64,000 bases of DNA from the NCBI GenBank assembly GCA_038065615.1, contig JBBTQQ010000001.1, positions 76,207 through 140,206 on the forward strand, written 5' to 3'. The stretch comes from Patescibacteria group bacterium (lineage in GTDB: Bacteria; Patescibacteriota; Doudnabacteria; UBA920; VMFF01). Shown piece after piece: positions 47,246 to 60,462 of this stretch (the first letter of the stretch is position 1; every line of letters starts with the position of its first letter). A program made the position numbers and the translations under genes. Below the pieces are notes generated by a model that worked only from the letters and a program-made list of their open reading frames with translations, did no database searches and was not told the DNA's origin.

Positions 47246-47487
47246 TTCATGTGCAATATATCATCTAATCCACCACCTCTTGAATATACTCTTGAGGTTG
47301 TATTTTATTCGGGAACTTTAAATCCGCTAATATACCACACCAAGTATCTTCATTTGAAGAATTATCAGAAACACTTCTACTGCAAACCTTAGTCAGCAGC
47401 ACTCTGGTTATCTAATAATGCGAGACAGATTATCCGAAGCCTTAACCGCAGATATGATCTATCAAAAATAGTTTAACAGGAATATAT

Positions 47488-47527
47488 AAAAAAGCGAACC
47501 CGTTCCAGCAAGCTGAAACGGGTTCAC
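47488..47527 (-). terminator. rho-independent terminator of the DGR target gene
   Basis: Minus-strand gaacccgtttcagcttgctggaacgggttc followed by gcttttttat. Confidence 0.65.
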
Positions 47528-47583
47528 GATTCGGACGCAGAGTCCAAGAATCAGACGAAGGACCAAAGCACCAAGCAGCCGAG

Positions 47584-48204
47584 CTACTTGCGAACGGCGG
47601 CGAAACGGCAGCGGCCATCCCACCTGTCCTCGAAGAAGTCGAGGTTAAGCTCGCGCCCGCCGCCCCAACCGTCGAGATACGGCACGCGGCGGTCGCCATC
47701 AGCGCTCGTCCAGAGCGAGCCGAGGCAGATGATTGGGAACTTGCGCTGCTCTTCCGGGTGCGTCTCGCCGAAGGCGAGCGATTCCGGTAGGATCGCTGCG
47801 CGAAGCCCAAGCTTGTCGAGCTCTACCAGTACGACGTCGCTTTCCATCTCCCGATCGAAATGCACCAGAACGATCTCGGTGCTGACTTCGCCCTTCCTAG
47901 TGAACGGGAAGTTCTTCTCGGTGATATTCTCGTTGACGTAGCGGTAGTTACCGGCCTTGATCATGTCAGCGAGATTGCGACCGTAGTTGATCAGCACGAG
48001 GAACGTGTTGGTCAACAGCGCGACCATCTGGTTGATCACCAGTCCGAAGCGCTCCTGCAAGTTGCCGCCGGCCTCGAATACGGCCTGCGCTTGCGGCTTG
48101 CTCATCCGCCGCAAGATTGGATCCAGAAGGCCTTTGAGTGCCCCGATCTGTTCATCGTTGGCTGGCACGACTGGGGTCTGCGACGTGATCGACGGTGTCG
48201 TCAT
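47584..48204 (-). CDS. DGR target (variable) protein, probable C-type-lectin-fold C-terminus
   Basis: GC-rich ORF. Likely start MTTPSITSQ... at 48204 with a GGAGGAG SD; the caller's start is 48291. The C-terminal 44 codons are the VR, ending CRFAAVRK, which is reminiscent of CLec-type VR ends. Confidence 0.7.
   Translation of the reverse strand: MTTPSITSQTPVVPANDEQIGALKGLLDPILRRMSKPQAQAVFEAGGNLQERFGLVINQMVALLTNTFLVLINYGRNLADMIKAGNYRYVNENITEKNFPFTRKGEVSTEIVLVHFDREMESDVVLVELDKLGLRAAILPESLAFGETHPEEQRKFPIICLGSLWTSADGDRRVPYLDGWGGGRELNLDFFEDRWDGRCRFAAVRK
47588..47721 (-). repeat. DGR variable repeat (VR) at the 3' end of the target gene
   Basis: 134 bp aligned to TR with 20 A-to-N differences (to C, G or T). 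The identical GC-rich 24-nt 3' end (ctgccgtttcgccgccgttcgcaa) looks IMH-like. It encodes ...GSLWTSADGDRRVPYLDGWGGGRELNLDFFEDRWDGRCRFAAVRK-stop. Confidence 0.85.
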
Positions 48205-48409
48205 CGTCTTACTCCTCCAGAGAGTTGTTTGTTGCCATCCCTTGCGGAATGCTCTGCTCGGATGTGAGCTAAGAGCTTCAGATATAATCATTATTATAGC
48301 TAAAGCACTCTGCCCAATTTAGTTCTATATTTTGACATATTCATATACTTCTGTCAAGTGGCACGGGGCTACACTTTGTATATGATATACTACCTATGTC
48401 GCACAATAT

Positions 48410-51002: not shown

Positions 51003-51553
51003 TAAAAGTTAACTTCAGGAGTTTTTTCTGCTCCTGCTTCTGCTTTAAACAATGTTCTTTCTTGAAAACCAAAAGTCTTTGCAATTATGTTTGAAGGAAA
51101 TGTTCTAACCGCGATGTTTATCTGGGTTACATTGTCATTGTATCTTCCTCGTTCAACTGCAACTCTGTTTTCAGTTCCAGCAAGCTCAGCGCTTAAATCC
51201 TGGTACAAAGGAACTGTTGAAATTGCAGGATTTGCTTCAATCACAGCAATTAAACGACCAAGGCTTGTTTCTAAATTGCTTGCAGCAGATGCTTTAGCAT
51301 CAACTGTAGATGCAGCTGCAAAAGCTGTTCTGGCATCTGTTACTTCTTTTGCAAAAGCAAGTTCTTGTTTGCTACCTCCCTTTACCGTGTTAACAAGGTT
51401 TGGGATTAAGCTTAAACGTCTCTGGTATTGGTTTTCTACCTGAGCCCATTGGTTATCCACTGCTTTATTCGCCCTTACAAGGTTGTTAAAAGAAAGAACA
51501 CCCCAAAGAGCTACTAAAACCAGTAATAATATGAACAAATTGAGTTTTTTCAT
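51002..51553 (-). CDS. lemA: LemA family protein
   Basis: N-terminal TM helix plus the conserved NQWAQVENQYQRRLSLIPNLV LemA motif. Paired with a TPM-domain gene, as commonly seen. Confidence 0.8.
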   Translation of the reverse strand: MKKLNLFILLLVLVALWGVLSFNNLVRANKAVDNQWAQVENQYQRRLSLIPNLVNTVKGGSKQELAFAKEVTDARTAFAAASTVDAKASAASNLETSLGRLIAVIEANPAISTVPLYQDLSAELAGTENRVAVERGRYNDNVTQINIAVRTFPSNIIAKTFGFQERTLFKAEAGAEKTPEVNF

Positions 51554-51717
51554 GGTTTCCTTTTCTTTCGGCTTTAAACTTTAGAATTAATTTATGCCGT
51601 TTATACTATCATTATACTGACTTTTAGAATAAAGGGGAAGAAAGCATTTGCACAGGAATATTCTTTGTGCTCTAATAATTATATATTTTGGAAACAAATA
51701 TTTAGGATACACAAAAA

Positions 51718-52389
51718 ATGAAGATTTTAATTGTAGAAGATGAAGTCAGATTAAGCGATGTTTTGAAAAAGAACTTGGAGACAGAGTACTTCATAGTTGA
51801 TGTTGCTAATGATGGAGACATTGGCGCAAAAATGGGTTTGGAGCATGATTATGATTTGATTGTTCTGGATCAGATGCTGCCCGGCAAAACTGGAATGGAA
51901 ATCTGCAAACTACTGCGCGAGTCCGGAAAAACAATGCCGATTATAATTCTCTCTGTTAAATCAGAAACCACGACTAAGATCGAACTATTAAATGCAGGAG
52001 CTGATGACTATTTAATAAAGCCATTTTCATTTGAAGAATTGGTTGCAAGAATCAGGGCGCTGATGCGCAGACCACAAAGTATTCAGGAAGAAATCTACAA
52101 AGTTGATGATTTAACTCTTGATACAAAAAGACAAACAGTAAAACGCGGCGACAAAGACATATACTTAACAAGGAAAGAATTCATGCTTTTAGAATATCTT
52201 TTAAAAAACAGAGATATTGTTCTTTCAAGAGCCATGATTATGGAACATGTTTGGGATATGTATGCTGACCCTTTTTCTAACACCATTGAATCTCACATTT
52301 TAAGCCTGAGGAAGAAAATTGATCTCCCAAACAAACAAAAGCTTATACAAACAGTGCCTGGCAGAGGGTACAAACTTAGTTTTGTGTAA
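51718..52389 (+). CDS. OmpR-family response regulator
   Basis: Receiver domain (DLIVLDQMLPGKTG, phosphoacceptor Asp) plus a winged-helix C-terminus (RGYKL). Confidence 0.9.
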   Translation: MKILIVEDEVRLSDVLKKNLETEYFIVDVANDGDIGAKMGLEHDYDLIVLDQMLPGKTGMEICKLLRESGKTMPIIILSVKSETTTKIELLNAGADDYLIKPFSFEELVARIRALMRRPQSIQEEIYKVDDLTLDTKRQTVKRGDKDIYLTRKEFMLLEYLLKNRDIVLSRAMIMEHVWDMYADPFSNTIESHILSLRKKIDLPNKQKLIQTVPGRGYKLSFV

Positions 52390-52446
52390 TTAAAAGCCTT
52401 AAACAAGACTTTTTTAAACTCCTCATATATATTTTATATATTCTTT

Positions 52447-52480
52447 AGCTAAACTTCAGCATCTTTTAGCTATTTTTTTA
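52447..52480 (+). terminator. weak AT-rich hairpin plus T-run after the response-regulator gene
   Basis: gctaaa-N11-tttagc followed by tatttttttatt. Confidence 0.3.
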
Positions 52481-52538
52481 TTACTAACCAACTAACGAAA
52501 CAAAACGGCAATCAAAAAAACTATAAGGAGGAACAAGG

Positions 52539-53390
52539 ATGACAAGCACAGTGAGAGCTTTTCGGAACTGGAGTGCAAGGCGGCTAGAATTAAATCCAAA
52601 CCCGTATCTTTCGGGGAATTTCAAACCCGAAGAATACCTAAGGACTTACTACCCTGCCTTGCCTGAGTCATCTATTTTTAGGCATGCGGAAACGCTCCAG
52701 AACGTATCTGAAGAAAACCTGACACTCTTACGCTTCTACGCTGATGCGCAAGTGCAGCTACAGCCCACAAGAGATTGGTTGTGGATGCTTGAGGTTGGAG
52801 GCGGTCCCACGATCTATCAACTGATCAGCCTTTCGAGATTAGTTGATAAGATTTGCTTTACTGACTTTCTCATACCGAATCTAGATTCGGTCGAGAATTG
52901 GATCAGAACCGGACATGACACGCGCTGGCTTTCCTACATCAGAGCAGCGCTACAATACGAACAAGGGAAAGCCCCAACAAACATGGAGGTCTTGCTCAGA
53001 GAACGAGAACTGAAGCGAAAAATGTCTCTGGTTAGATATGATGTGCTAAGAGACCGCTTTTTCGCGACAGCGCCAAAAGAGTATGATCTGGTCAGCTCAA
53101 ACTTCTGCATTGAGTGTATCAGTCAAAGCAAGGTTGTCTGGCTACAAGCGCTCCGAAACATTAGCAAGAGAATTGCAGAAGGAGGCTGTTTGGTCATGAC
53201 TGCTCTGCGTATGGCGAGCACCTACAACATCCATGGTCGGATTCTTCCTGCTACTCCGATTGACGAAACAGATGTTTGGAAAGCACTTCGTGATCTTGAT
53301 TTTTCAAATATCAAGATCAGTTCCCGCGACTGTCTCGGAAAAAACGAATACAACGGCATGATCTATGTCATGGCTCGAAAAGACTCCTAG
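52539..53390 (+). CDS. NNMT/PNMT/TEMT-family SAM-dependent N-methyltransferase (eukaryote-type family, PF01234-like)
   Basis: FKPEEYLRTYY matches FNPRDYLEKYY, and LEVGGGPTIYQLISLSRLVDKICFTDFLIPNLDSVENW matches [39 protein letters not shown] of human NNMT (recalled from memory). A strong AAGGAGG SD is present. The cassette is noticeably more GC-rich than the host genes. Confidence 0.8.
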   Translation: MTSTVRAFRNWSARRLELNPNPYLSGNFKPEEYLRTYYPALPESSIFRHAETLQNVSEENLTLLRFYADAQVQLQPTRDWLWMLEVGGGPTIYQLISLSRLVDKICFTDFLIPNLDSVENWIRTGHDTRWLSYIRAALQYEQGKAPTNMEVLLRERELKRKMSLVRYDVLRDRFFATAPKEYDLVSSNFCIECISQSKVVWLQALRNISKRIAEGGCLVMTALRMASTYNIHGRILPATPIDETDVWKALRDLDFSNIKISSRDCLGKNEYNGMIYVMARKDS

Positions 53391-53398
53391 GGGGCTCT

Positions 53399-54028
53399 AT
53401 GACAACATTCAAGGTTCGGAACGCTAGGACTTGTGACTACGAGGAATTTGCTGATGCCGAACGCATCGCATGGACTGGAAGCGAGGTTCCAATCATCAAC
53501 AGAGAACAATTCCTAACATGGCTCGAGATTTTCCCGGAAGGACTGCTCGTAGTCGAAACAGGCGGCAAAGTATGTGGGCATCATTTCTCTCAGATACGGG
53601 AGTTTGACGTATGCGACTACAAAGACAATCGTAGCTGGGACGAACTAACAGAAGATGGATTTTGCCGAACAACCCACGACCCGAAGGGAAATGTTCTCTA
53701 CGGAGTCAGTGTCTCAGCATCAATCCGAGGCGCAGGCAGATTTGTTTTTGAAGCAGCAGTGAAACAAATACACTCACTGCATTTACCAAGGTATGTTGGA
53801 GCTTGCAGAATACCTGGACTAACGACGTACGCCGAAAACAAAGGTATGAGCTCTGACAAAGTTGTTTCTGAGTATGTCTCAAATGTTCTCTTGGGGAAAC
53901 TCAAGGACAAGACCCTCTCTGCTCTGCTGACAGTCGACGGAGTTCGTTTCGTGCGCCTGGTTCCAGGATACTTCACTGATGCCCAGAGCAATAACTGGGC
54001 ATGCCTCATTTGTTATGAGGCAGATTGA
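53399..54028 (+). CDS. GNAT-fold acetyltransferase-like protein
   Basis: 209 aa. Beta-alpha-beta pattern with an R-x-x-G-x-A motif-A-like IRGAGRF segment. An AGGGGG SD lies 8 nt upstream. Co-oriented with the methyltransferase, 8 bp downstream. Confidence 0.5.
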   Translation: MTTFKVRNARTCDYEEFADAERIAWTGSEVPIINREQFLTWLEIFPEGLLVVETGGKVCGHHFSQIREFDVCDYKDNRSWDELTEDGFCRTTHDPKGNVLYGVSVSASIRGAGRFVFEAAVKQIHSLHLPRYVGACRIPGLTTYAENKGMSSDKVVSEYVSNVLLGKLKDKTLSALLTVDGVRFVRLVPGYFTDAQSNNWACLICYEAD

Positions 54029-54054
54029 TTCATCTAGATCTTCGGAACCAACTT

Positions 54055-54088
54055 GGAGGGCGCTTGATACAAAGCGCCCCTCCTTTTT
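54055..54088 (+). terminator. strong GC-rich rho-independent terminator after the methyltransferase-GNAT cassette
   Basis: ggagggcgctt-gatacaa-agcgcccctcc followed by ttttt. Confidence 0.75.
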
Positions 54089-54134
54089 AAGTACATAGTT
54101 TTTGTATATACTATAAATACTTTTTAGAGGGACT

Positions 54135-56228
54135 ATGGATTACAGATATCTCATTGAAATCTTTGCGGCACTAATCGGCATCTTCTGCGTAGGTCTAAGT
54201 TTTATCATGCTGATGCACTGGCGCGGTAAAAAAGACGTCGGCTATTTTTCTTTCAGTATTTTAAGCGCAGGGCTGTGGATTCTTTCTGTATATTTTGCTG
54301 ATATTTCCACTGATTTACCAGGGCTTGTTTTCTGGACAAAGCTTGCTTCAATCTGCGCTTTGTTTTATGTTTTCTTTTTCGTTATTTTCGGATATTCGTT
54401 CAGACATCCAGGAAAAAATTGGAAAATATATCTTGCACTAATTCTCCCTATTCTTGCAAATACAATATATCTATACAGATTTCCATTAAACGAAGTGTAT
54501 GTTTCTGACCCGTTTATTGGTTTTAGTTATGACCATCCTGTTGGAGGAATTTTAAGCGGAAACTTTTCTTTATACCTACTCCTCTTCCTCATATATTACA
54601 TGATTGGTTATGTTATTTTGCTGTGGAAGTACGGAACACTTCCTCTTAGAACAAGACTTCAAATTAAATACATCTTAATTGGCACAACTATTTCAATTAT
54701 CGCTGCTGCACTTTTTGATATCCTTTTACCACTTCAAGGCATTGACTATCTATATGCTTTAGGGCCTGCTTGTACTGCTCTTTTAATCTTAAGCACTGCA
54801 TATGCAATAGCGAAACATAATCTTTTAGAGATTAAAGTAGTCATTCAGCGAGGAGTAATCTACTCTCTTTTGATCGCTCTTGTTGTTGGCTTCTATCTCC
54901 TTCTTCTGTTTATACTTCGTTCCGTATACTTTGAACCAACAGGAAAAACCGCAAGCCTTGTTAGCGCGATTATTACCACCTTACTAGGTATCTTTGGTGC
55001 TCCTTTGTTAGAAAGAATTTTAAGGAAAATAACTGACAAGGTGTTTTTCAAAGAACGCTATGACTATTCCAAAGCAGTGCAAGAGTTAGTTAGAATATTA
55101 AACGAAGAAATAGAGTTTGAAGCACTAGTTAATGAAAGTAAAAATACTCTTCAGAAAATACTTAAAACTAAAACAATTCATTTTCTTTTTCTAAAATCAA
55201 ATCCTGATTCAGCCCTATCCGAACATACCCAAAAAAATGGACTATTAAGCTCAGAACACATCCAGGGCATTAGAGGAATACTTCTAGTAGATGAATTAAG
55301 TAATGAAATTCTAATATCTGGCGCTAAATATTACGATACAGAACTAATTGTTCCGCTTTTAGCAGCCCAAAAGGTGATTGGTCTTGCTTTTGTTCCAAAG
55401 AAACTTTCAGGCGAACAATATTCTAATCAAGACATTGACCTATTAAATGTTTTCTCATTACAAGCTGGGGTCTCTTTGGAAAAAGCAAGATTACTCTGGG
55501 AGGTTCAAAGATATTCTAATGAACTGGAACAGCGTGTTGAAGAAAGAACCCATAGGATTCAACAGCTTCAGCAAGAACAAAAAAACTTTATGAATGATAT
55601 TTCACATTCTCTACAAACTCCATTAACTGTCATTAAAGGAGAGCTTGATTTCCTTAAGATGCGCTCTAAACCAATAAAAGAGTTGGGGAAGTTTGAGAAA
55701 TCAGTTGATGAAATATCTCGTCTAATCTACAACCTCCTTAAACTAGCAAAGATTGAAATGCAGGATATGGGCGCTAAAAAAGAACGGATCAACTTAAGCG
55801 TTCTCCTTGAAGATATAATCGAGTACCTGGATGTGCTTTGTAAAACAAATGATATCAAGATCGTAAAAAATATTCAGTCTGATGTTTTTGTTTTAGGTAA
55901 CGCTGAATCTTTAGAAACACTGATTACTAATCTAACAAGCAATGCAATAAAGTACATAGCGAACAAGAAAATAATTACGATCACGCTTCAAAAAACTGAC
56001 CATGTTGTGCTATCTATTAAAGACACTGGTATTGGTATAGAAAAAGAAGATTTAAAATATATTTTCAACCGTTTCTACAGAGTCGGCACTTCTAAATCAG
56101 AAGTTTCCGGAACAGGATTGGGTTTGGCAATCTGCAAAAAAATAGCCCAGAACCACGGCGGAGACATTTCTGTAGAAAGCATTCCAAAACAAGGAACAAC
56201 TTTTACAGTTAGGTTCCCTTTAATTTAA
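54135..56228 (+). CDS. sensor histidine kinase with polytopic N-terminal membrane domain
   Basis: About 8 TM helices, a central GAF-like region, HisKA H-box (MNDISHSLQTPLT) and HATPase_c N/G1/G2 boxes (GTGLGLAICKKIAQNHGGDI). Confidence 0.9.
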   Translation: MDYRYLIEIFAALIGIFCVGLSFIMLMHWRGKKDVGYFSFSILSAGLWILSVYFADISTDLPGLVFWTKLASICALFYVFFFVIFGYSFRHPGKNWKIYLALILPILANTIYLYRFPLNEVYVSDPFIGFSYDHPVGGILSGNFSLYLLLFLIYYMIGYVILLWKYGTLPLRTRLQIKYILIGTTISIIAAALFDILLPLQGIDYLYALGPACTALLILSTAYAIAKHNLLEIKVVIQRGVIYSLLIALVVGFYLLLLFILRSVYFEPTGKTASLVSAIITTLLGIFGAPLLERILRKITDKVFFKERYDYSKAVQELVRILNEEIEFEALVNESKNTLQKILKTKTIHFLFLKSNPDSALSEHTQKNGLLSSEHIQGIRGILLVDELSNEILISGAKYYDTELIVPLLAAQKVIGLAFVPKKLSGEQYSNQDIDLLNVFSLQAGVSLEKARLLWEVQRYSNELEQRVEERTHRIQQLQQEQKNFMNDISHSLQTPLTVIKGELDFLKMRSKPIKELGKFEKSVDEISRLIYNLLKLAKIEMQDMGAKKERINLSVLLEDIIEYLDVLCKTNDIKIVKNIQSDVFVLGNAESLETLITNLTSNAIKYIANKKIITITLQKTDHVVLSIKDTGIGIEKEDLKYIFNRFYRVGTSKSEVSGTGLGLAICKKIAQNHGGDISVESIPKQGTTFTVRFPLI

Positions 56229-56274
56229 TAGATAAAAAAGGAAAAGCACAGTGAACTTGCTACCAGTATATATA

Positions 56275-56305
56275 CAAAAAACGCTTTTGTTTTAAAGCGT
56301 TTTTA
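56275..56305. terminator. bidirectional hairpin terminator between the kinase gene (+) and the DUF3105 gene (-)
   Basis: aaaacgctttt-gtttt-aaagcgtttt with T/A runs on both sides. Confidence 0.55.
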
Positions 56306-56317
56306 AAATATCCTTAA

Positions 56318-56824
56318 TTAATCTGCTAACTTTTCTGGTGAGTTATTTATATTTGCTTTAATGAAGCTTAATATTTCTTCTTGATTAAAGCTATCTAATT
56401 TTTGTAGTCTACCCCAAGAAGCAAGTGCGATCTTAGAATCATTGTTAGCTCTAGGAGTAACGACAACAGAACCTGGATTTTGACGTCCTATTATTTCTAA
56501 CTCACTCTTAGTTTGCTCATCGATGTCTTTGTAAGAAATCCAGATTCCGCCATGTTCCAAGTTATGAATCAGCTGCTCATCTGGTAACGGGTTTTCATAA
56601 ACACCCCAATTTGCTTGTTGAGCATAATGCGGTCCAGATGTAGGTGGATTAGAATTATACGGTTCGTGAGTTGCTCCAACATCAATGTGGGTAGCTGACT
56701 GCAAGTCAACAAGTTCTCCTTTTAAAATAGAATCTTGTGCTGGAGTCTTGTCATTCTTAATTAACCAAATTCCAAGACCAACAAACAATATCAATGTAAT
56801 CAAAACAGTTGTAACGGTTTTCAT
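56318..56824 (-). CDS. DUF3105-like exported protein
   Basis: N-terminal TM/signal, conserved PPTSGPH and NLEHGG motifs. 168 aa. Confidence 0.6.
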   Translation of the reverse strand: MKTVTTVLITLILFVGLGIWLIKNDKTPAQDSILKGELVDLQSATHIDVGATHEPYNSNPPTSGPHYAQQANWGVYENPLPDEQLIHNLEHGGIWISYKDIDEQTKSELEIIGRQNPGSVVVTPRANNDSKIALASWGRLQKLDSFNQEEILSFIKANINNSPEKLAD

Positions 56825-56841
56825 ATATTTTTAAGCTTTAA

Positions 56842-59010
56842 TTATATTTTTAATTTAGATTCAACCCGTTTTAATAGAACAGCGTTGGTTGCAACAATGA
56901 TTGATGAAGCAGACATAAGCAAAGCAGAAATTTCTGGTCTTAACATTAGTCCAAATGAGGTGTAAAAAACACCGGCTGCAACAGGAATAGCCAAAACATT
57001 GTATATCGCCGCCCAGAAAAGATTCTGCTTCATTTTAGTAACAGTTGCTTTAGAAAGGCGTATAGCAGCAACAATATCATATGGATCGGATTTCATCAAA
57101 ACAATATTACCAGTCTCAATCGCGACGTCTGTGCCAGCGCCAATAGCGATACCAATGTCAGCCTGTGCTAAAGCAGGAGCGTCATTAATACCATCACCAA
57201 CCATGGCCACAAACTTTCCTTCTTCCTGCAGTTTTTTTACGTATTTTACCTTATCCTCTGGTAAGACCTCGGCAAATATGCGATCAATACCTAATCCCTG
57301 ACCAACTGCTTCAGCAACTTTCACATGATCGCCGGTAATCATAATTACTTCTAACCCCAATTCTTTTAATTTTTGAACTGTTTTTTTGGAACTCGGTTTG
57401 ATAGCATCTGCCACGGCAATTATGCCAACAAGTTTGCCGTCTATGGACAAAATACTAAGGGTCTTTCCTTGGTTTGCAAGCTTATCAATTTCACCTCTTG
57501 CAACTGTAGCATCGACGTTGTTGTTCTGCAACAATTTTTCATTGCCTGAAAAAACAGTCTTTCCGTCTATGACACCCTTGATACCAAAACCAGCAATTGA
57601 AGACATTTGAATTCCTTGTTTCAGAATCAATCCACGATTCTTAGACTCATCAATAATTGATTTAGAAATCGGGTGATTGGAACCTAAACCAACACTGGCC
57701 TGATATATTAAAACGTCATCTTCGCTAAAACCATTAAAAGCTATAACGTCAGTGACTTTAGGCTTACCTTCTGTGAGAGTACCAGTTTTGTCCAAAACAA
57801 TGGCAGTAAGACGTGAGGTATTTTCTAAGGTCGCGGCGTCTTTAATGAGAATATTATTTTTTGCTCCAATACCTGTTCCTACTGCAACGACCGTTGGGGT
57901 GGCAAGTCCAAGCGCATCCGGACAAGCAATAACTACCGCTGAGATGGCAAAGGTCAAAGCAGTAAGTGCTGATGCGTCAGCCCCAAAATACCAACTCAAA
58001 AATGTTGCCAACCCTGAACCAACCGCAACTATAACCAACCTCCCTGCCCAACGATCTGCAATACGCTGACCTGGTGCCTTAGAGTTCTGGGCTGTTTCGA
58101 CCATTTTAATAATATGAGCGAGTACGGTTTCTGAACCCACTTTTGTAGCTTTAAACTTTATAACCCCCGTAACATTAACTGAACCACCAACAACTTTGTC
58201 GTTAACAACTTTAGTAACTGGCATTGATTCACCTGTCACTAATGATTCATCAATAGTACTTTCGCCTTCTGTAATTACACCGTCTACCGGTATTTTGTCA
58301 CCTGGTTTTACTAGAACAATATCATCTTGTATAATCTCGGCGCTTTGAATATTAAACTCCAAACCGTTTCGTATTACGGTTGCTTTCGGAGGTACTAAAT
58401 CAAACAAAGCTTGTAAAGAATCTGAGGTTCCTTTGCGCGAACGCATTTCCATCCAGTGACCAAAGAGCACAAAGGTAACTAACAATGCAGCTGCTTCATA
58501 GAACGTTTCTTCTGAACCAATAAAGGTTAGCAGGACGCTAAAGGCATATGCAGCGAGAACGCCGGTTGCTATTAAGACCGCCATGTTAAGCTTTTTTGCT
58601 TTCAAGGAATAGTATGTACCAGTTATGAAGATAGAGCCTGTCCAAAAGACAATTGGTGTGGTTAGAATAAAAAGAATCCAGTTGATTGGAATTGGAGTTG
58701 GTAGATTAAGCTTAAAGAAATTAACTCCAACCGGAGAATAGAGGAAAATCGGTATTGAAAGCAAAAATGAAATCAAGAATCGTTTACGCATATCTGCTTC
58801 CATATGCTTGGCCATAGCAGGATTAGTCATTGCTGATTCGTGATCATGGTGACTCATCTCCTGCATATTTTCTGTTTGAGGGATAGTTGTTTCTTTAGGA
58901 ATTAAATCCATGCCACAACCAGGACATTTACCTGGCGCACTTCTTATTACTTCCGGATGCATCGGACAAGTATAGATTGTATTTGATTGTTGATGATTGT
59001 GATTATTCAT
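56842..59010 (-). CDS. copA: P1B-type heavy-metal (probably Cu/Ag) translocating ATPase
   Basis: DKTGT, GDGINDAP and HP motifs. TM6 motif is CPD (VIACPDALGLATP) rather than CPC. N-terminal CPMHPEV...CPGCGM metal-binding domain and a His/Met-rich N-terminus. Confidence 0.85.
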   Translation of the reverse strand: MNNHNHQQSNTIYTCPMHPEVIRSAPGKCPGCGMDLIPKETTIPQTENMQEMSHHDHESAMTNPAMAKHMEADMRKRFLISFLLSIPIFLYSPVGVNFFKLNLPTPIPINWILFILTTPIVFWTGSIFITGTYYSLKAKKLNMAVLIATGVLAAYAFSVLLTFIGSEETFYEAAALLVTFVLFGHWMEMRSRKGTSDSLQALFDLVPPKATVIRNGLEFNIQSAEIIQDDIVLVKPGDKIPVDGVITEGESTIDESLVTGESMPVTKVVNDKVVGGSVNVTGVIKFKATKVGSETVLAHIIKMVETAQNSKAPGQRIADRWAGRLVIVAVGSGLATFLSWYFGADASALTALTFAISAVVIACPDALGLATPTVVAVGTGIGAKNNILIKDAATLENTSRLTAIVLDKTGTLTEGKPKVTDVIAFNGFSEDDVLIYQASVGLGSNHPISKSIIDESKNRGLILKQGIQMSSIAGFGIKGVIDGKTVFSGNEKLLQNNNVDATVARGEIDKLANQGKTLSILSIDGKLVGIIAVADAIKPSSKKTVQKLKELGLEVIMITGDHVKVAEAVGQGLGIDRIFAEVLPEDKVKYVKKLQEEGKFVAMVGDGINDAPALAQADIGIAIGAGTDVAIETGNIVLMKSDPYDIVAAIRLSKATVTKMKQNLFWAAIYNVLAIPVAAGVFYTSFGLMLRPEISALLMSASSIIVATNAVLLKRVESKLKI

Positions 59011-59018
59011 GTGAGTTA

Positions 59019-59612
59019 TTAATATTTTGAGATCATTTCAAACAATTTGTCGTTGTTTATAGCCATATTCGCATCATCAAAGACGTCCCTAACTATTCCT
59101 TGCTTGTCTATCATTATATAGGTGTGCCCTGGAAGTTGCCCTGCATGCATTGAAGACCCCATTGATACAATTCCGAGCTGACGAGAAGAAATCGCGTCCT
59201 GATCGAATAACGTGGTAACTTTTGCTAGATCCGGCATTTTATCAATCGCTTTCTGCCAGTCTGCTACTGAATCGGCTACTACTGAATCGGCTATTATGTC
59301 ATCGCTGTTGAATCGATTGTCTGTACCGAAAGCTGCCATTTGATCCCAACAAGCTGGATAACACATTAATCCTTCATTGAAAAACAAAACAGCATTCTTT
59401 CCCTTTAAACTAGAAAAATCATAAACATTCCCAGTATTGTCTCTAAGCTGCATATCAGGCAAAGGCTTGCCTATCAAACTATTGGTACTTGTTATTGCTT
59501 TCTGCTCCTGTTCACTAGTCTTGCTGGTATTTAATAGCGCTAACCCTAAAACTACCAAAGCAATAGCAATTAAGCCGACTAAACCTATTCCCTTTATTTT
59601 ATCATTAATCAT
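59019..59612 (-). CDS. membrane-anchored thioredoxin-fold protein (TlpA/SCO-like)
   Basis: Single TM anchor. Cys pair in LMCYPACWDQ. Start taken at the internal Met to avoid overlap with ccdA; the caller's start is 59636. Confidence 0.55.
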   Translation of the reverse strand: MINDKIKGIGLVGLIAIALVVLGLALLNTSKTSEQEQKAITSTNSLIGKPLPDMQLRDNTGNVYDFSSLKGKNAVLFFNEGLMCYPACWDQMAAFGTDNRFNSDDIIADSVVADSVADWQKAIDKMPDLAKVTTLFDQDAISSRQLGIVSMGSSMHAGQLPGHTYIMIDKQGIVRDVFDDANMAINNDKLFEMISKY

Positions 59613-60462
59613 GTTTTTTAAATTGTTTAATAGCATAAATTATTAGCATAACGAAAATCAACAGAACGATTCCTGCCCATACTGACTCTGGAACTTTTTG
59701 AGTAAATCCGCGAATTGAACTGACGATATTAGCAACAATGATATTAGTAGAAAGCTGATAATTGGATTGCATCGCCAATCTGTTTACTAGAGCTAAATAT
59801 ATTATATATATACCGACACCAAGAAAAACAAAACCAGCGACAGCACTAGCCAAGTTAAAACGCCAGGTAAAATCTTTGATCTTTAAAGTTCTTGGTTTTC
59901 TTAAAGAAACAAATTTTTGTGTGAAGTTTATCTTGTCCAAATAAAAAGCGATTAAGAATAGAGGAGTTACCATACCTAAAACATAACTCAATGTGTAGAC
60001 ACCACCCCAAAGAATGCTTCCGCTTGTAACTGAAAGTGCTAAAACTCCTGCCAGCACAGGCGCGCAACATGTTGTTGCTATAGCTGAAAAAATACCAAGC
60101 ATATAAACAGAAAGGACACTATATTTCTTTACCGAAGGTTTTATGAATGCCGGCAATGACATATCCATACCGATCAGAAGCGCTATACCTAAACCAGAAA
60201 GCATTAATCCTCCTAAAGTAAAAACTAAATTATGATATCTATTAAATACCTGAGCCAAAGCTGAAGCCCCAAGACCTATTGGCAAGAAGACTGTCAAAAT
60301 CCCTAGGAAGAATATAAAGGTCATTAAGACTACCTTGTATCGTTCTTTAAACACTGACCCTAAATATGAGGGCAGCAAAACTGTTATGCAGCATGGTGCA
60401 AACAGAGCAGCTATTCCGGCAATGAATGCCGCGACTATTGATGTGCTTGAAAGTAAATCCAT
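59605..60462 (-). CDS. ccdA: CcdA/DsbD-family transmembrane thiol-disulfide electron transporter
   Basis: 6-8 TM protein with a conserved Cys pair in the first TM region (FAPCCITVLLP) and a second Cys region (TTCCAPVLAG). Confidence 0.65.
   Translation of the reverse strand: MDLLSSTSIVAAFIAGIAALFAPCCITVLLPSYLGSVFKERYKVVLMTFIFFLGILTVFLPIGLGASALAQVFNRYHNLVFTLGGLMLSGLGIALLIGMDMSLPAFIKPSVKKYSVLSVYMLGIFSAIATTCCAPVLAGVLALSVTSGSILWGGVYTLSYVLGMVTPLFLIAFYLDKINFTQKFVSLRKPRTLKIKDFTWRFNLASAVAGFVFLGVGIYIIYLALVNRLAMQSNYQLSTNIIVANIVSSIRGFTQKVPESVWAGIVLLIFVMLIIYAIKQFKKHD

Follow-up and report, generated by a model that had tools for sequence, protein, structure and literature searches.

The DNA considered here is a 64-kb stretch (64,000 nucleotides) from the genome of a Patescibacteria group bacterium (GenBank assembly GCA_038065615.1, contig JBBTQQ010000001.1). 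It is referred to throughout as the window, and all positions follow its numbering unless another locus is named. Four plus-strand genes lie in a row in this window, and they encode a response regulator (RR), a methyltransferase dependent on S-adenosylmethionine (SAM) that is abbreviated MT, a GNAT-like protein designated X, and a sensor histidine kinase (HK). Patescibacteria have tiny genomes with few regulators and are attached to other cells, and the means by which they sense their partners or conditions are largely obscure. A two-component system that keeps its own enzyme operon through deep divergence, as the one described here does, is a concrete candidate for the way in which they signal with small molecules or handle amines.

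RR (51718–52389) is an OmpR/PhoB-type response regulator with receiver and winged-helix domains (Pfam Response_reg, 3.5e-27; Trans_reg_C, 6.9e-24), and its best NCBIfam similarity is to CopR/CzcR-type regulators, under their cut-offs. MT (52539–53390) is a 283-aa N-methyltransferase of the NNMT/PNMT/TEMT family (PF01234), as judged from Pfam, NCBIfam and PDB sequence matches. It is preceded at 52525–52531 by the Shine-Dalgarno sequence AAGGAGG, 7 nt 5′ of the start codon, the core of which (GGAGGA) is invariant among relatives. Following a spacer of 8 bp (53391–53398), X (53399–54028) encodes a stand-alone GNAT-fold enzyme of 209 aa and has the sequence GGGGG 4 nt 5′ of its start. Its clade is uncharacterised, lies nearest to the GNAT-like decarboxylases CurA, GphF and SxtA, and is without their catalytic His. 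HK (54135–56228) is a polytopic sensor histidine kinase with a HisKA_7TM domain, a weak GAF-like region, HisKA and HATPase_c. An initial annotation of the region had given all four open reading frames (ORFs) at these coordinates, together with the spacer, the ribosome-binding sites and the two-component nature of the flanking genes, and each of these points holds. An antisense ORF at 53698–54009 was considered as a further gene and rejected as most likely a by-product of higher GC.

Close relatives of MT (69–93% identity) and X (74–94%) occur only in a handful of Patescibacteria metagenome-assembled genomes (MAGs). In every such relative with enough sequence (loci L001, L003–L006, L008–L011 and L013), the gene order is RR-MT-X-HK. 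A scan of species genomes returned two loci, both close relatives, and a metagenome scan returned one short locus, L018. The same order is found at far greater distances. In L007, for example, MT, X and HK are only 38–40% identical to those of the window and the flanking genes are unrelated. The order is also seen on a JGI contig carrying the X-family member P0024 (X 54% identical) and in L012 (X 42% identical). The homologous two-component systems recovered have MT and X between RR and HK in about ten close loci, in L007, in L012, in L015 and on the JGI contig. The initial annotation had taken MT-X for a laterally acquired cassette dropped into a two-component operon, a view contradicted by the recurrence of the order at 30–60% identity amid unrelated flanks; this is largely the outcome that the annotation itself had named as refuting it.

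Other lineages vary the content of the locus while keeping its frame. L015 has RR, a fusion of an MT-like domain with AdoMet (that is, SAM) decarboxylase, a PF01234 MT, X and a kinase with seven-transmembrane (7TM) and GAF regions. L016, from Parcubacteria, has RR, a membrane protein, a B12-radical-SAM enzyme, an AdoMet decarboxylase, X and a 7TM kinase, with no PF01234 MT between RR and HK. L017 is reduced to X and a 7TM-GAF kinase. Across L007, L015, L016 and L017 the identity of X is 30–57%. RR, X and HK are nevertheless orthologous and co-diverging across lineages, the 7TM domain of HK included, whereas the partner enzymes vary, although all of them use SAM (PF01234 MT, AdoMet decarboxylase or B12-radical-SAM enzyme). 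For this reason, the constant feature of the locus is X immediately 5′ of an orthologous HisKA_7TM kinase, a pairing that is present in about eight lineages and that the initial annotation had missed. No description of this gene arrangement was found in the searchable literature on HisKA_7TM, PF01234 in bacteria and quorum sensing in the candidate phyla radiation (CPR). The parts are of known kinds; what is new is their conserved wiring and the clade to which X belongs.

The taxonomic labels of the MAGs concerned are inconsistent. L013 (CAYIKZ010000012.1), labelled "uncultured Candidatus Saccharibacteria", has near-identical synteny and proteins 92–97% identical to those of the window, as compared alongside L004 (JBTSKZ010000022.1). 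Candidatus Doudnabacteria is the label of a more distant relative, and that of the window proteins themselves is "Patescibacteria group".

The two signalling proteins are conserved over their full extent. The module regulators of L007, L015 and L016 share 59–68% identity with RR. The kinases beside X in L007, L015, L016 and L017 are orthologues of HK from end to end, the 7TM part being no exception, at identities of 32–38% for the whole protein and 30–42% for the 7TM part. The sensor part of the kinase keeps pace with X in its divergence: for either one, the nearest versions are those of L007 and L017 and the farthest those of L015 and L016. HK has about nine hydrophobic segments joined by short loops and no extracytoplasmic domain, an architecture from which sensing within the membrane would be expected; the enzymes of the module are soluble. 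A PADLOC search yielded no match to a defence system; the one hit was a weak one to a receiver domain, for RR. In L016 (9916–12310) two further signalling genes come straight after that of the module kinase, one for a second histidine kinase, with a PAS domain, and one for a single-domain response regulator, an arrangement suggesting that the pathway there is branched or involves several kinases.

Assignment of MT to the NNMT/PNMT/TEMT family, as put forward in the initial annotation, is borne out by the Pfam profile search (PF01234, E 7.3e-31, 107.8 bits against a cut-off of 25). The match spans residues 27–281 of the protein and positions 15–261 of the 261 in the model. Other MTs of the module score 120.8 bits (L007) and 76.1 bits (L015), and the best PDB sequence matches of the window MT are human NNMT (5e-13), PNMT (4e-12) and INMT (2e-9). 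Both motif boxes of the family are present. The N-terminal box FxPxxYLxxYY reads F28-KPEE-Y33-LRT-Y37-Y38, with its Tyr columns invariant across the module MTs, and the SAM-binding loop GxGPTIYQ reads G87-GGPTIYQ (residues 87–94) and is conserved. The equivalents of NNMT G63 and of the acidic residues D85 and D142, which bind ribose and adenine (G87, D109 and D168), are kept in all module MTs, as is the Tyr cluster formed in NNMT by Y20, Y24, Y25 and Y204, the last of which is Y229 in the window MT. The gene evolves under a dN/dS (the ratio of non-synonymous to synonymous substitution rates) of 0.08–0.13.

Conservation of the family core does not extend to the nicotinamide site. Asp197 and Ser201 of NNMT, which have a role in nicotinamide binding, are replaced in the window MT by Ala222 and Ala226, and the Asp197 position is Ala in all module MTs. 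Because of this replacement of Asp197, a nicotinamide-like substrate site in MT is unlikely. Relative to the animal enzymes NNMT, PNMT and INMT, MT is only about 25% identical. It nonetheless resembles the family at large, including the bacterial members GntF and SCO2525, in its full-length match to the model, its SAM loop, its acidic residues and its Tyr cluster. Bacterial members had been described in the initial annotation as rare; they are indeed uncommon, but not new, since NCBIfam already has two bacterial families of PF01234 type, GntF and SCO2525.

In databases, MT (MEK7651730.1) and its relatives carry the NCBI product name [quoted passage not shown]. The score of MT against the corresponding equivalog, NF041360, is 70.2 bits over a cut-off of 60, which is marginal for a model of 273 positions. 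Related module MTs score 52–82 bits, and that of L015, at 51.9, is under the cut-off. GntF has its setting in a toxin cluster, whereas that of MT is a two-component module: no other guanitoxin-pathway genes are near MT, and in all lineages the surrounding genes are RR, X, HK and housekeeping genes. Orthology with GntF was rejected for the marginal score and the wrong gene context. Since no other guanitoxin-pathway genes lie nearby, the name on the module MTs is almost certainly an over-annotation, and likely a systematic one.

The identity of X is less readily read from profiles. X and its close relatives have no match in Pfam or NCBIfam, and the relatives are annotated as hypothetical. The GNAT fold was confirmed by an AlphaFold2 model built from a 12-sequence alignment (mean predicted local distance difference test, pLDDT, 84; predicted template-modelling score, pTM, 0.82) together with fold searches, and the "GNAT-fold-like" label given earlier was correct in this respect. 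When the X-family profile was searched against the whole PDB, the top three matches by sequence were CurA (7e-5), GphF (0.015) and SxtA (0.021). Pfam links X to GNAT transitively, via the distant family members P0126, P0149 and P0145, which are matched by Acetyltransf_1. In addition, distant plasmid homologues of X are annotated as GNAT by NCBI. In an exhaustive profile search the family comprised 676 representatives at E ≤1e-3 and 18 at ≤1e-30.

The residues of X were mapped by aligning CurA (GNAT_L, 2REE), GphF (6MFC) and SxtA (7UCI) with 21 X-family sequences, with CurA numbering anchored on R387, H389, R404, Y419 and T355. The decarboxylase catalytic dyad of CurA consists of His389 and Thr355 (PMC3701320). 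The first of these corresponds to L176 of X, in a column that contains L, T, V, F, A, D, M or S in the 21 family members versus H/H/H in the decarboxylases. Thr355 corresponds to C136, and this position is Cys in 17 of the 21 members and Ser in 2, residues that are nucleophilic or polar but different from that of CurA. Arg404 is F192 in X, with Phe, Leu, Met and one Ser in the family column. Tyr419 corresponds to Y206, and His307 to H93, which is invariant everywhere in the alignment. The pyrophosphate-binding loop between β4 and α3 (R/Q-x-x-G-x-G/A in GNATs) is also retained, as X G111-A-G113 matches CurA G329-L-G331 and is near-invariant in the family, although the leading Q/R is not clearly kept. 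The family's own near-invariant residues are His61 and Cys136.

At the position of CurA His389, X therefore has neither the decarboxylase His nor the general-acid Tyr of canonical GNATs. X was rejected as a functional CurA-type decarboxylase, its catalytic His being missing. Its description as an N-acyltransferase in the initial annotation also went too far: the nearest relatives of X are GNAT-like decarboxylases rather than N-acetyltransferases, and the canonical GNAT Tyr is absent. The subfamily matters because CurA, GphF and SxtA decarboxylate malonyl-type thioesters. X is best placed in a new branch of the GNAT-like clade, uncharacterised so far, in which acyl-thioester binding has probably been kept. 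The clade so defined numbers some 240 to 680 cluster representatives; the polyketide-loading decarboxylases are its relatives, but its catalytic residues differ from theirs.

Members of this clade are repeatedly tied to signalling proteins, namely 7TM kinases and PilZ. PilZ, a receptor for cyclic di-GMP (c-di-GMP), is fused to X-like domains in 4 of the roughly 14 multidomain relatives tested. Among distant family members (P0056, P0073, P0096, P0148, P0059, P0105, P0126 and P0149), the fusion partners are PilZ, radical-SAM, amidohydrolase or carbon-nitrogen (C-N) hydrolase domains. On a Priestia plasmid, a stand-alone relative of X has a C-N hydrolase and another GNAT as neighbours.

The non-coding DNA of the locus has a layout of its own. 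Directly 3′ of RR is a hairpin with a T-run (52392–52415), and such a structure is present at the same place in L007, L015 and L016. In alignment A3 the relatives read AAAAGCCTTTTACAAGGCTTTTTT and the window reads AAAAGCCTTAAACAAGACTTTTTT. The stem is intact and terminator-like in relatives (AAGCCTT...AAGGCTT), and the window copy has a stem mismatch and loop changes. Because the hairpin is weakened in this way, read-through from RR into MT-X may be higher in this genome.

Between this hairpin and MT lies a conserved promoter/operator block of about 60 bp (52424–52485), a candidate RR-binding site. Despite the saturation of synonymous sites, this block hardly varies across eight loci. It contains the direct repeat TTTAGCTA at 52444–52451 and 52465–52472, 21 bp from start to start, and this repeat pair is found once in the window. 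Tandem binding sites are typical of OmpR-family regulators. In keeping with this, exact direct repeats in helical phase, spaced 11 or 21–22 bp apart, lie 5′ of the enzyme genes, and in four of the five lineages they exceed what dinucleotide-shuffled sequence gives. The observed repeat was reached by 43 of 1000 shuffles for the window, 3 of 1000 for L007, 1 of 1000 for L015 and 10 of 1000 for L017.

X and HK are separated by an intrinsic-terminator-like structure at 54055–54088, which the initial annotation had also proposed. It was recovered by a terminator scan as a hairpin of 11 bp (54055–54082) followed by T5 (54084–54088). Its folding energy is -22 kcal/mol, two compensatory pairs occur among relatives, and L007, L015, L016 and L017 each have a hairpin in the corresponding place between X and HK. 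Immediately 5′ of HK is a promoter-like block with a ribosome-binding site, AGAGGGA (54096–54134), which is conserved in all close relatives as TTTTTTGTATATACTGTAAATACTTTTTAGAGGGAC in alignment A4. A permissive E-value Rfam scan of 51400–56400 found no riboswitch or other RNA. Because of the terminators and the phased direct repeats, the layout suggests three transcription units, with MT-X under the control of RR.

Strong conservation is not confined to the operator block. The spacers at 51554–51717, 52390–52538 and 54029–54134, and the same spacers in L001–L013, are 78–86% identical among members of the clade, in which neighbouring genes have a synonymous divergence (dS) above 1. The non-coding DNA of the clade is under unusually strong constraint.

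A second peculiarity of the locus is compositional. The GC content of MT (46.5%) and X (47.8%) is above that of RR (36.5%) and HK (35.2%), as claimed in the initial annotation. In GC content at third codon positions (GC3), MT and X rank second and third of the 49 ORFs in the window (z = 2.1 and 1.7). The excess is shared by every close relative, with GC3 values of 0.41–0.51 for MT-X versus 0.26–0.34 for RR and HK. Synonymous sites are saturated among these relatives (dS 1.1–2.7), and purifying selection on MT and X is strong (dN/dS 0.06–0.13). Since the excess persists across the clade despite saturation, the anomaly is old and maintained. The module genes of L015 and L016 are of native composition; L015 thus combines both genes with native composition, and L016 has a native X but lacks the PF01234 MT.

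The GC excess could be explained either by an ancient replacement of MT-X from a GC-richer lineage, with incomplete amelioration, or by a constraint on composition specific to these genes. A replacement of this kind, taking place inside an existing module, is possible, though less likely than not; in the GC-rich lineage L017, X does have a GC3 of 0.75. In L007 (4516–6046) only X is GC-rich (GC3 0.45) and the adjacent MT is native (0.34), and the closest relative of this X (57%) is that of L017. These observations hint at exchange of X alone between lineages. Direct or inverted repeats flanking MT-X amount only to short matches at chance level, and there are no tRNA genes between 44 and 60 kb in the window. 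In plasmid and phage searches MT had no plasmid match and X no phage match, and the plasmid relatives of X were only the distant GNAT-annotated ones.

Other elements lie near the module. Downstream of HK on the minus strand is a copper/redox cluster (56318–60462) that encodes a DUF3105 protein, a heavy-metal P-type ATPase with HMBD, an AhpC/redoxin-like protein and a DsbD_TM protein. In L004 the cluster also has a YHS-domain protein, and in L005 there is a CsoR-type repressor instead. Because the cluster is not beside the module in L001, L006 and L010, it is probably outside it. Upstream, between rpsO and an XerC-like integrase gene, is a complete diversity-generating retroelement (45698–48291). 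It comprises a reverse transcriptase gene (45698–46753, minus strand), bAvd (46831–47094, plus strand), a template repeat (47112–47245), and a variable repeat (47588–47721) at the 3′ end of a target ORF of 235 aa (47584–48291, minus strand; 59% GC, GC3 0.76, no Pfam match). The template and variable repeats agree at 85% of positions, and all of their differences are at adenines of the template. The corresponding slot contains the reverse transcriptase and bAvd in L001 and nothing in L006.

The reading towards which we lean, by a small degree, is that MT and X are the enzymes at the heart of a conserved sensory-enzymatic module. This module consists of RR, then one or more SAM-dependent tailoring enzymes with X, then a 7TM kinase, and it would make or tailor a small amine that may act in an autoinducing loop. 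In this scheme, phosphorylated RR would bind the repeats at 52444–52472 and turn on MT-X. X would then acylate an amine using an acyl thioester, either CoA-bound or carrier-bound, and the PF01234 MT would N-methylate the same amine. The amine would probably be made in the cell and be derived from polyamines or SAM, because other lineages add AdoMet decarboxylase to the module. Finally, the membrane-embedded 7TM domain of HK would sense the product, closing a synthase-receptor loop like those of agr, comQXPA and luxMN. What supports the synthase-receptor reading is the adjacency of the genes, the co-divergence of X and the kinase, and the phased repeats. Modification of a small amine under two-component control had been suggested in the initial annotation; it is still the most plausible chemistry, strengthened by the AdoMet-decarboxylase partners, but its acyl-transfer part was overstated.

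A number of points weigh against this scheme. Even acyl transfer is unproven, as the mapped positions of X lack both the His of the decarboxylases and the Tyr/Glu of canonical GNATs. The chemistry and the kinase ligand are both inferred from gene context. The repeat statistics are modest in the window and not significant in L016, and because intergenic DNA is generally well conserved in the clade, the conservation seen in the operator block counts for less than it might seem to. No exporter gene lies within the module in the window. Lastly, the sample consists of about eight independent lineages, and kinase orthologues without X were not searched for.

A more specific form of the scheme is that the module is a CPR small-molecule signalling circuit. 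In such a circuit, X and lineage-specific SAM enzymes would make an N-acylated, N-methylated amine derived from polyamines or SAM, the amine would act as an autoinducer or a host-directed signal, and HK would be its receptor. Stated in such detail the proposal is speculative and, taken whole, unlikely.

The strongest functional rival is inducible detoxification or modification, in which HK would sense an external amine (a host polyamine, an antibiotic or a toxin) that MT-X would inactivate by N-methylation and N-acylation; the initial annotation had also suggested detoxification. The synteny and regulatory layout fit this explanation as well, GNAT enzymes and N-methyltransferases are classic xenobiotic-modifying enzymes, and some distant relatives of X are beside or fused with C-N hydrolases. 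However, AdoMet decarboxylase and B12-radical-SAM enzymes inside the module elsewhere point to an amine that is made inside rather than captured, and variable tailoring enzymes around a constant X-kinase pair resemble product diversification more than defence against one toxin. In known resistance systems, moreover, the RR and HK genes are usually side by side and the enzyme genes lie outside them, as in vanRS-HAX and bceRS-AB. We consider detoxification improbable on these grounds, while regarding it as a genuine competitor.

Much less probable is that the target is a protein, with X acylating and/or MT methylating the kinase, the regulator or an envelope protein and thereby tuning signalling. 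This would account for the strict adjacency and co-divergence of X and HK and for the fusion of distant X-like domains to PilZ. A possible precedent is available in PixB of Myxococcus xanthus, a PilZ-PilZ-GNAT protein that regulates behaviour via its acetyltransferase domain (PMC8316039). The partner enzymes of the module (AdoMet decarboxylase, B12-radical-SAM enzyme and PF01234 N-methyltransferases), however, are small-molecule enzymes.

Slimmer still are the prospects of X as a true decarboxylase of malonyl-type thioesters in the manner of CurA, GphF and SxtA, with MT acting on the acyl unit as in MT-GNAT loading modules. In X the His389 position is variable and mostly hydrophobic, the Arg404 position has lost its Arg, and Cys takes the place of Thr355, with the near-invariant His61 being the family's own. 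In addition, CurA, GphF and SxtA are parts of polyketide synthase (PKS) loading modules with an acyl carrier protein (ACP), whereas X stands alone, and no ACP or PKS genes were found in any module locus examined. MT likewise comes from an N-methyltransferase family, not from the metal-dependent C-methyltransferases of loading modules.

The least credible explanation is that MT-X was dropped recently between RR and HK, either here or in an immediate ancestor of this genome, and need not be functionally linked to them. The clade-wide GC and GC3 excess and the faster evolution of MT-X relative to RR and HK favour it. A recent insertion was nevertheless rejected on the conserved synteny at low identity with unrelated flanks, the native composition in L015 and L016, and the saturated synonymous sites beneath a GC3 that stays high; in addition, the junctions have no repeats, tRNA genes or integrase, and plasmid or phage copies are lacking.

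If the synthase-receptor reading is true, the X family would be a new class of signal synthase, sharing its GNAT branch of origin with the polyketide-loading decarboxylases. Precedents for parts of this design can be seen in known systems. PixB, for instance, has a GNAT-type enzyme wired to a signalling input, and X seems comparable in lying beside a kinase and in having distant family members fused to PilZ. The two differ in the form of the connection, which in PixB is fusion to a c-di-GMP receptor and in the module is adjacency to a kinase.

A broader comparison can be made with agrBDCA, comQXPA and luxMN, which are quorum-sensing modules that pair a synthase with a receptor and employ polytopic kinases. 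In contrast to these systems, the module has no peptide precursor and no member of a known synthase family (LuxI, LuxM, AgrB or ComQ), and its enzymes are placed between RR and HK. The likeness lies in the overall plan. As in agrBDCA, comQXPA and luxMN, an enzyme gene appears to be kept beside a multi-pass kinase that has no large external domain, together with a cognate regulator, and the module would further share with them a separately regulated promoter for the enzymes and a tailoring chemistry that varies from lineage to lineage.

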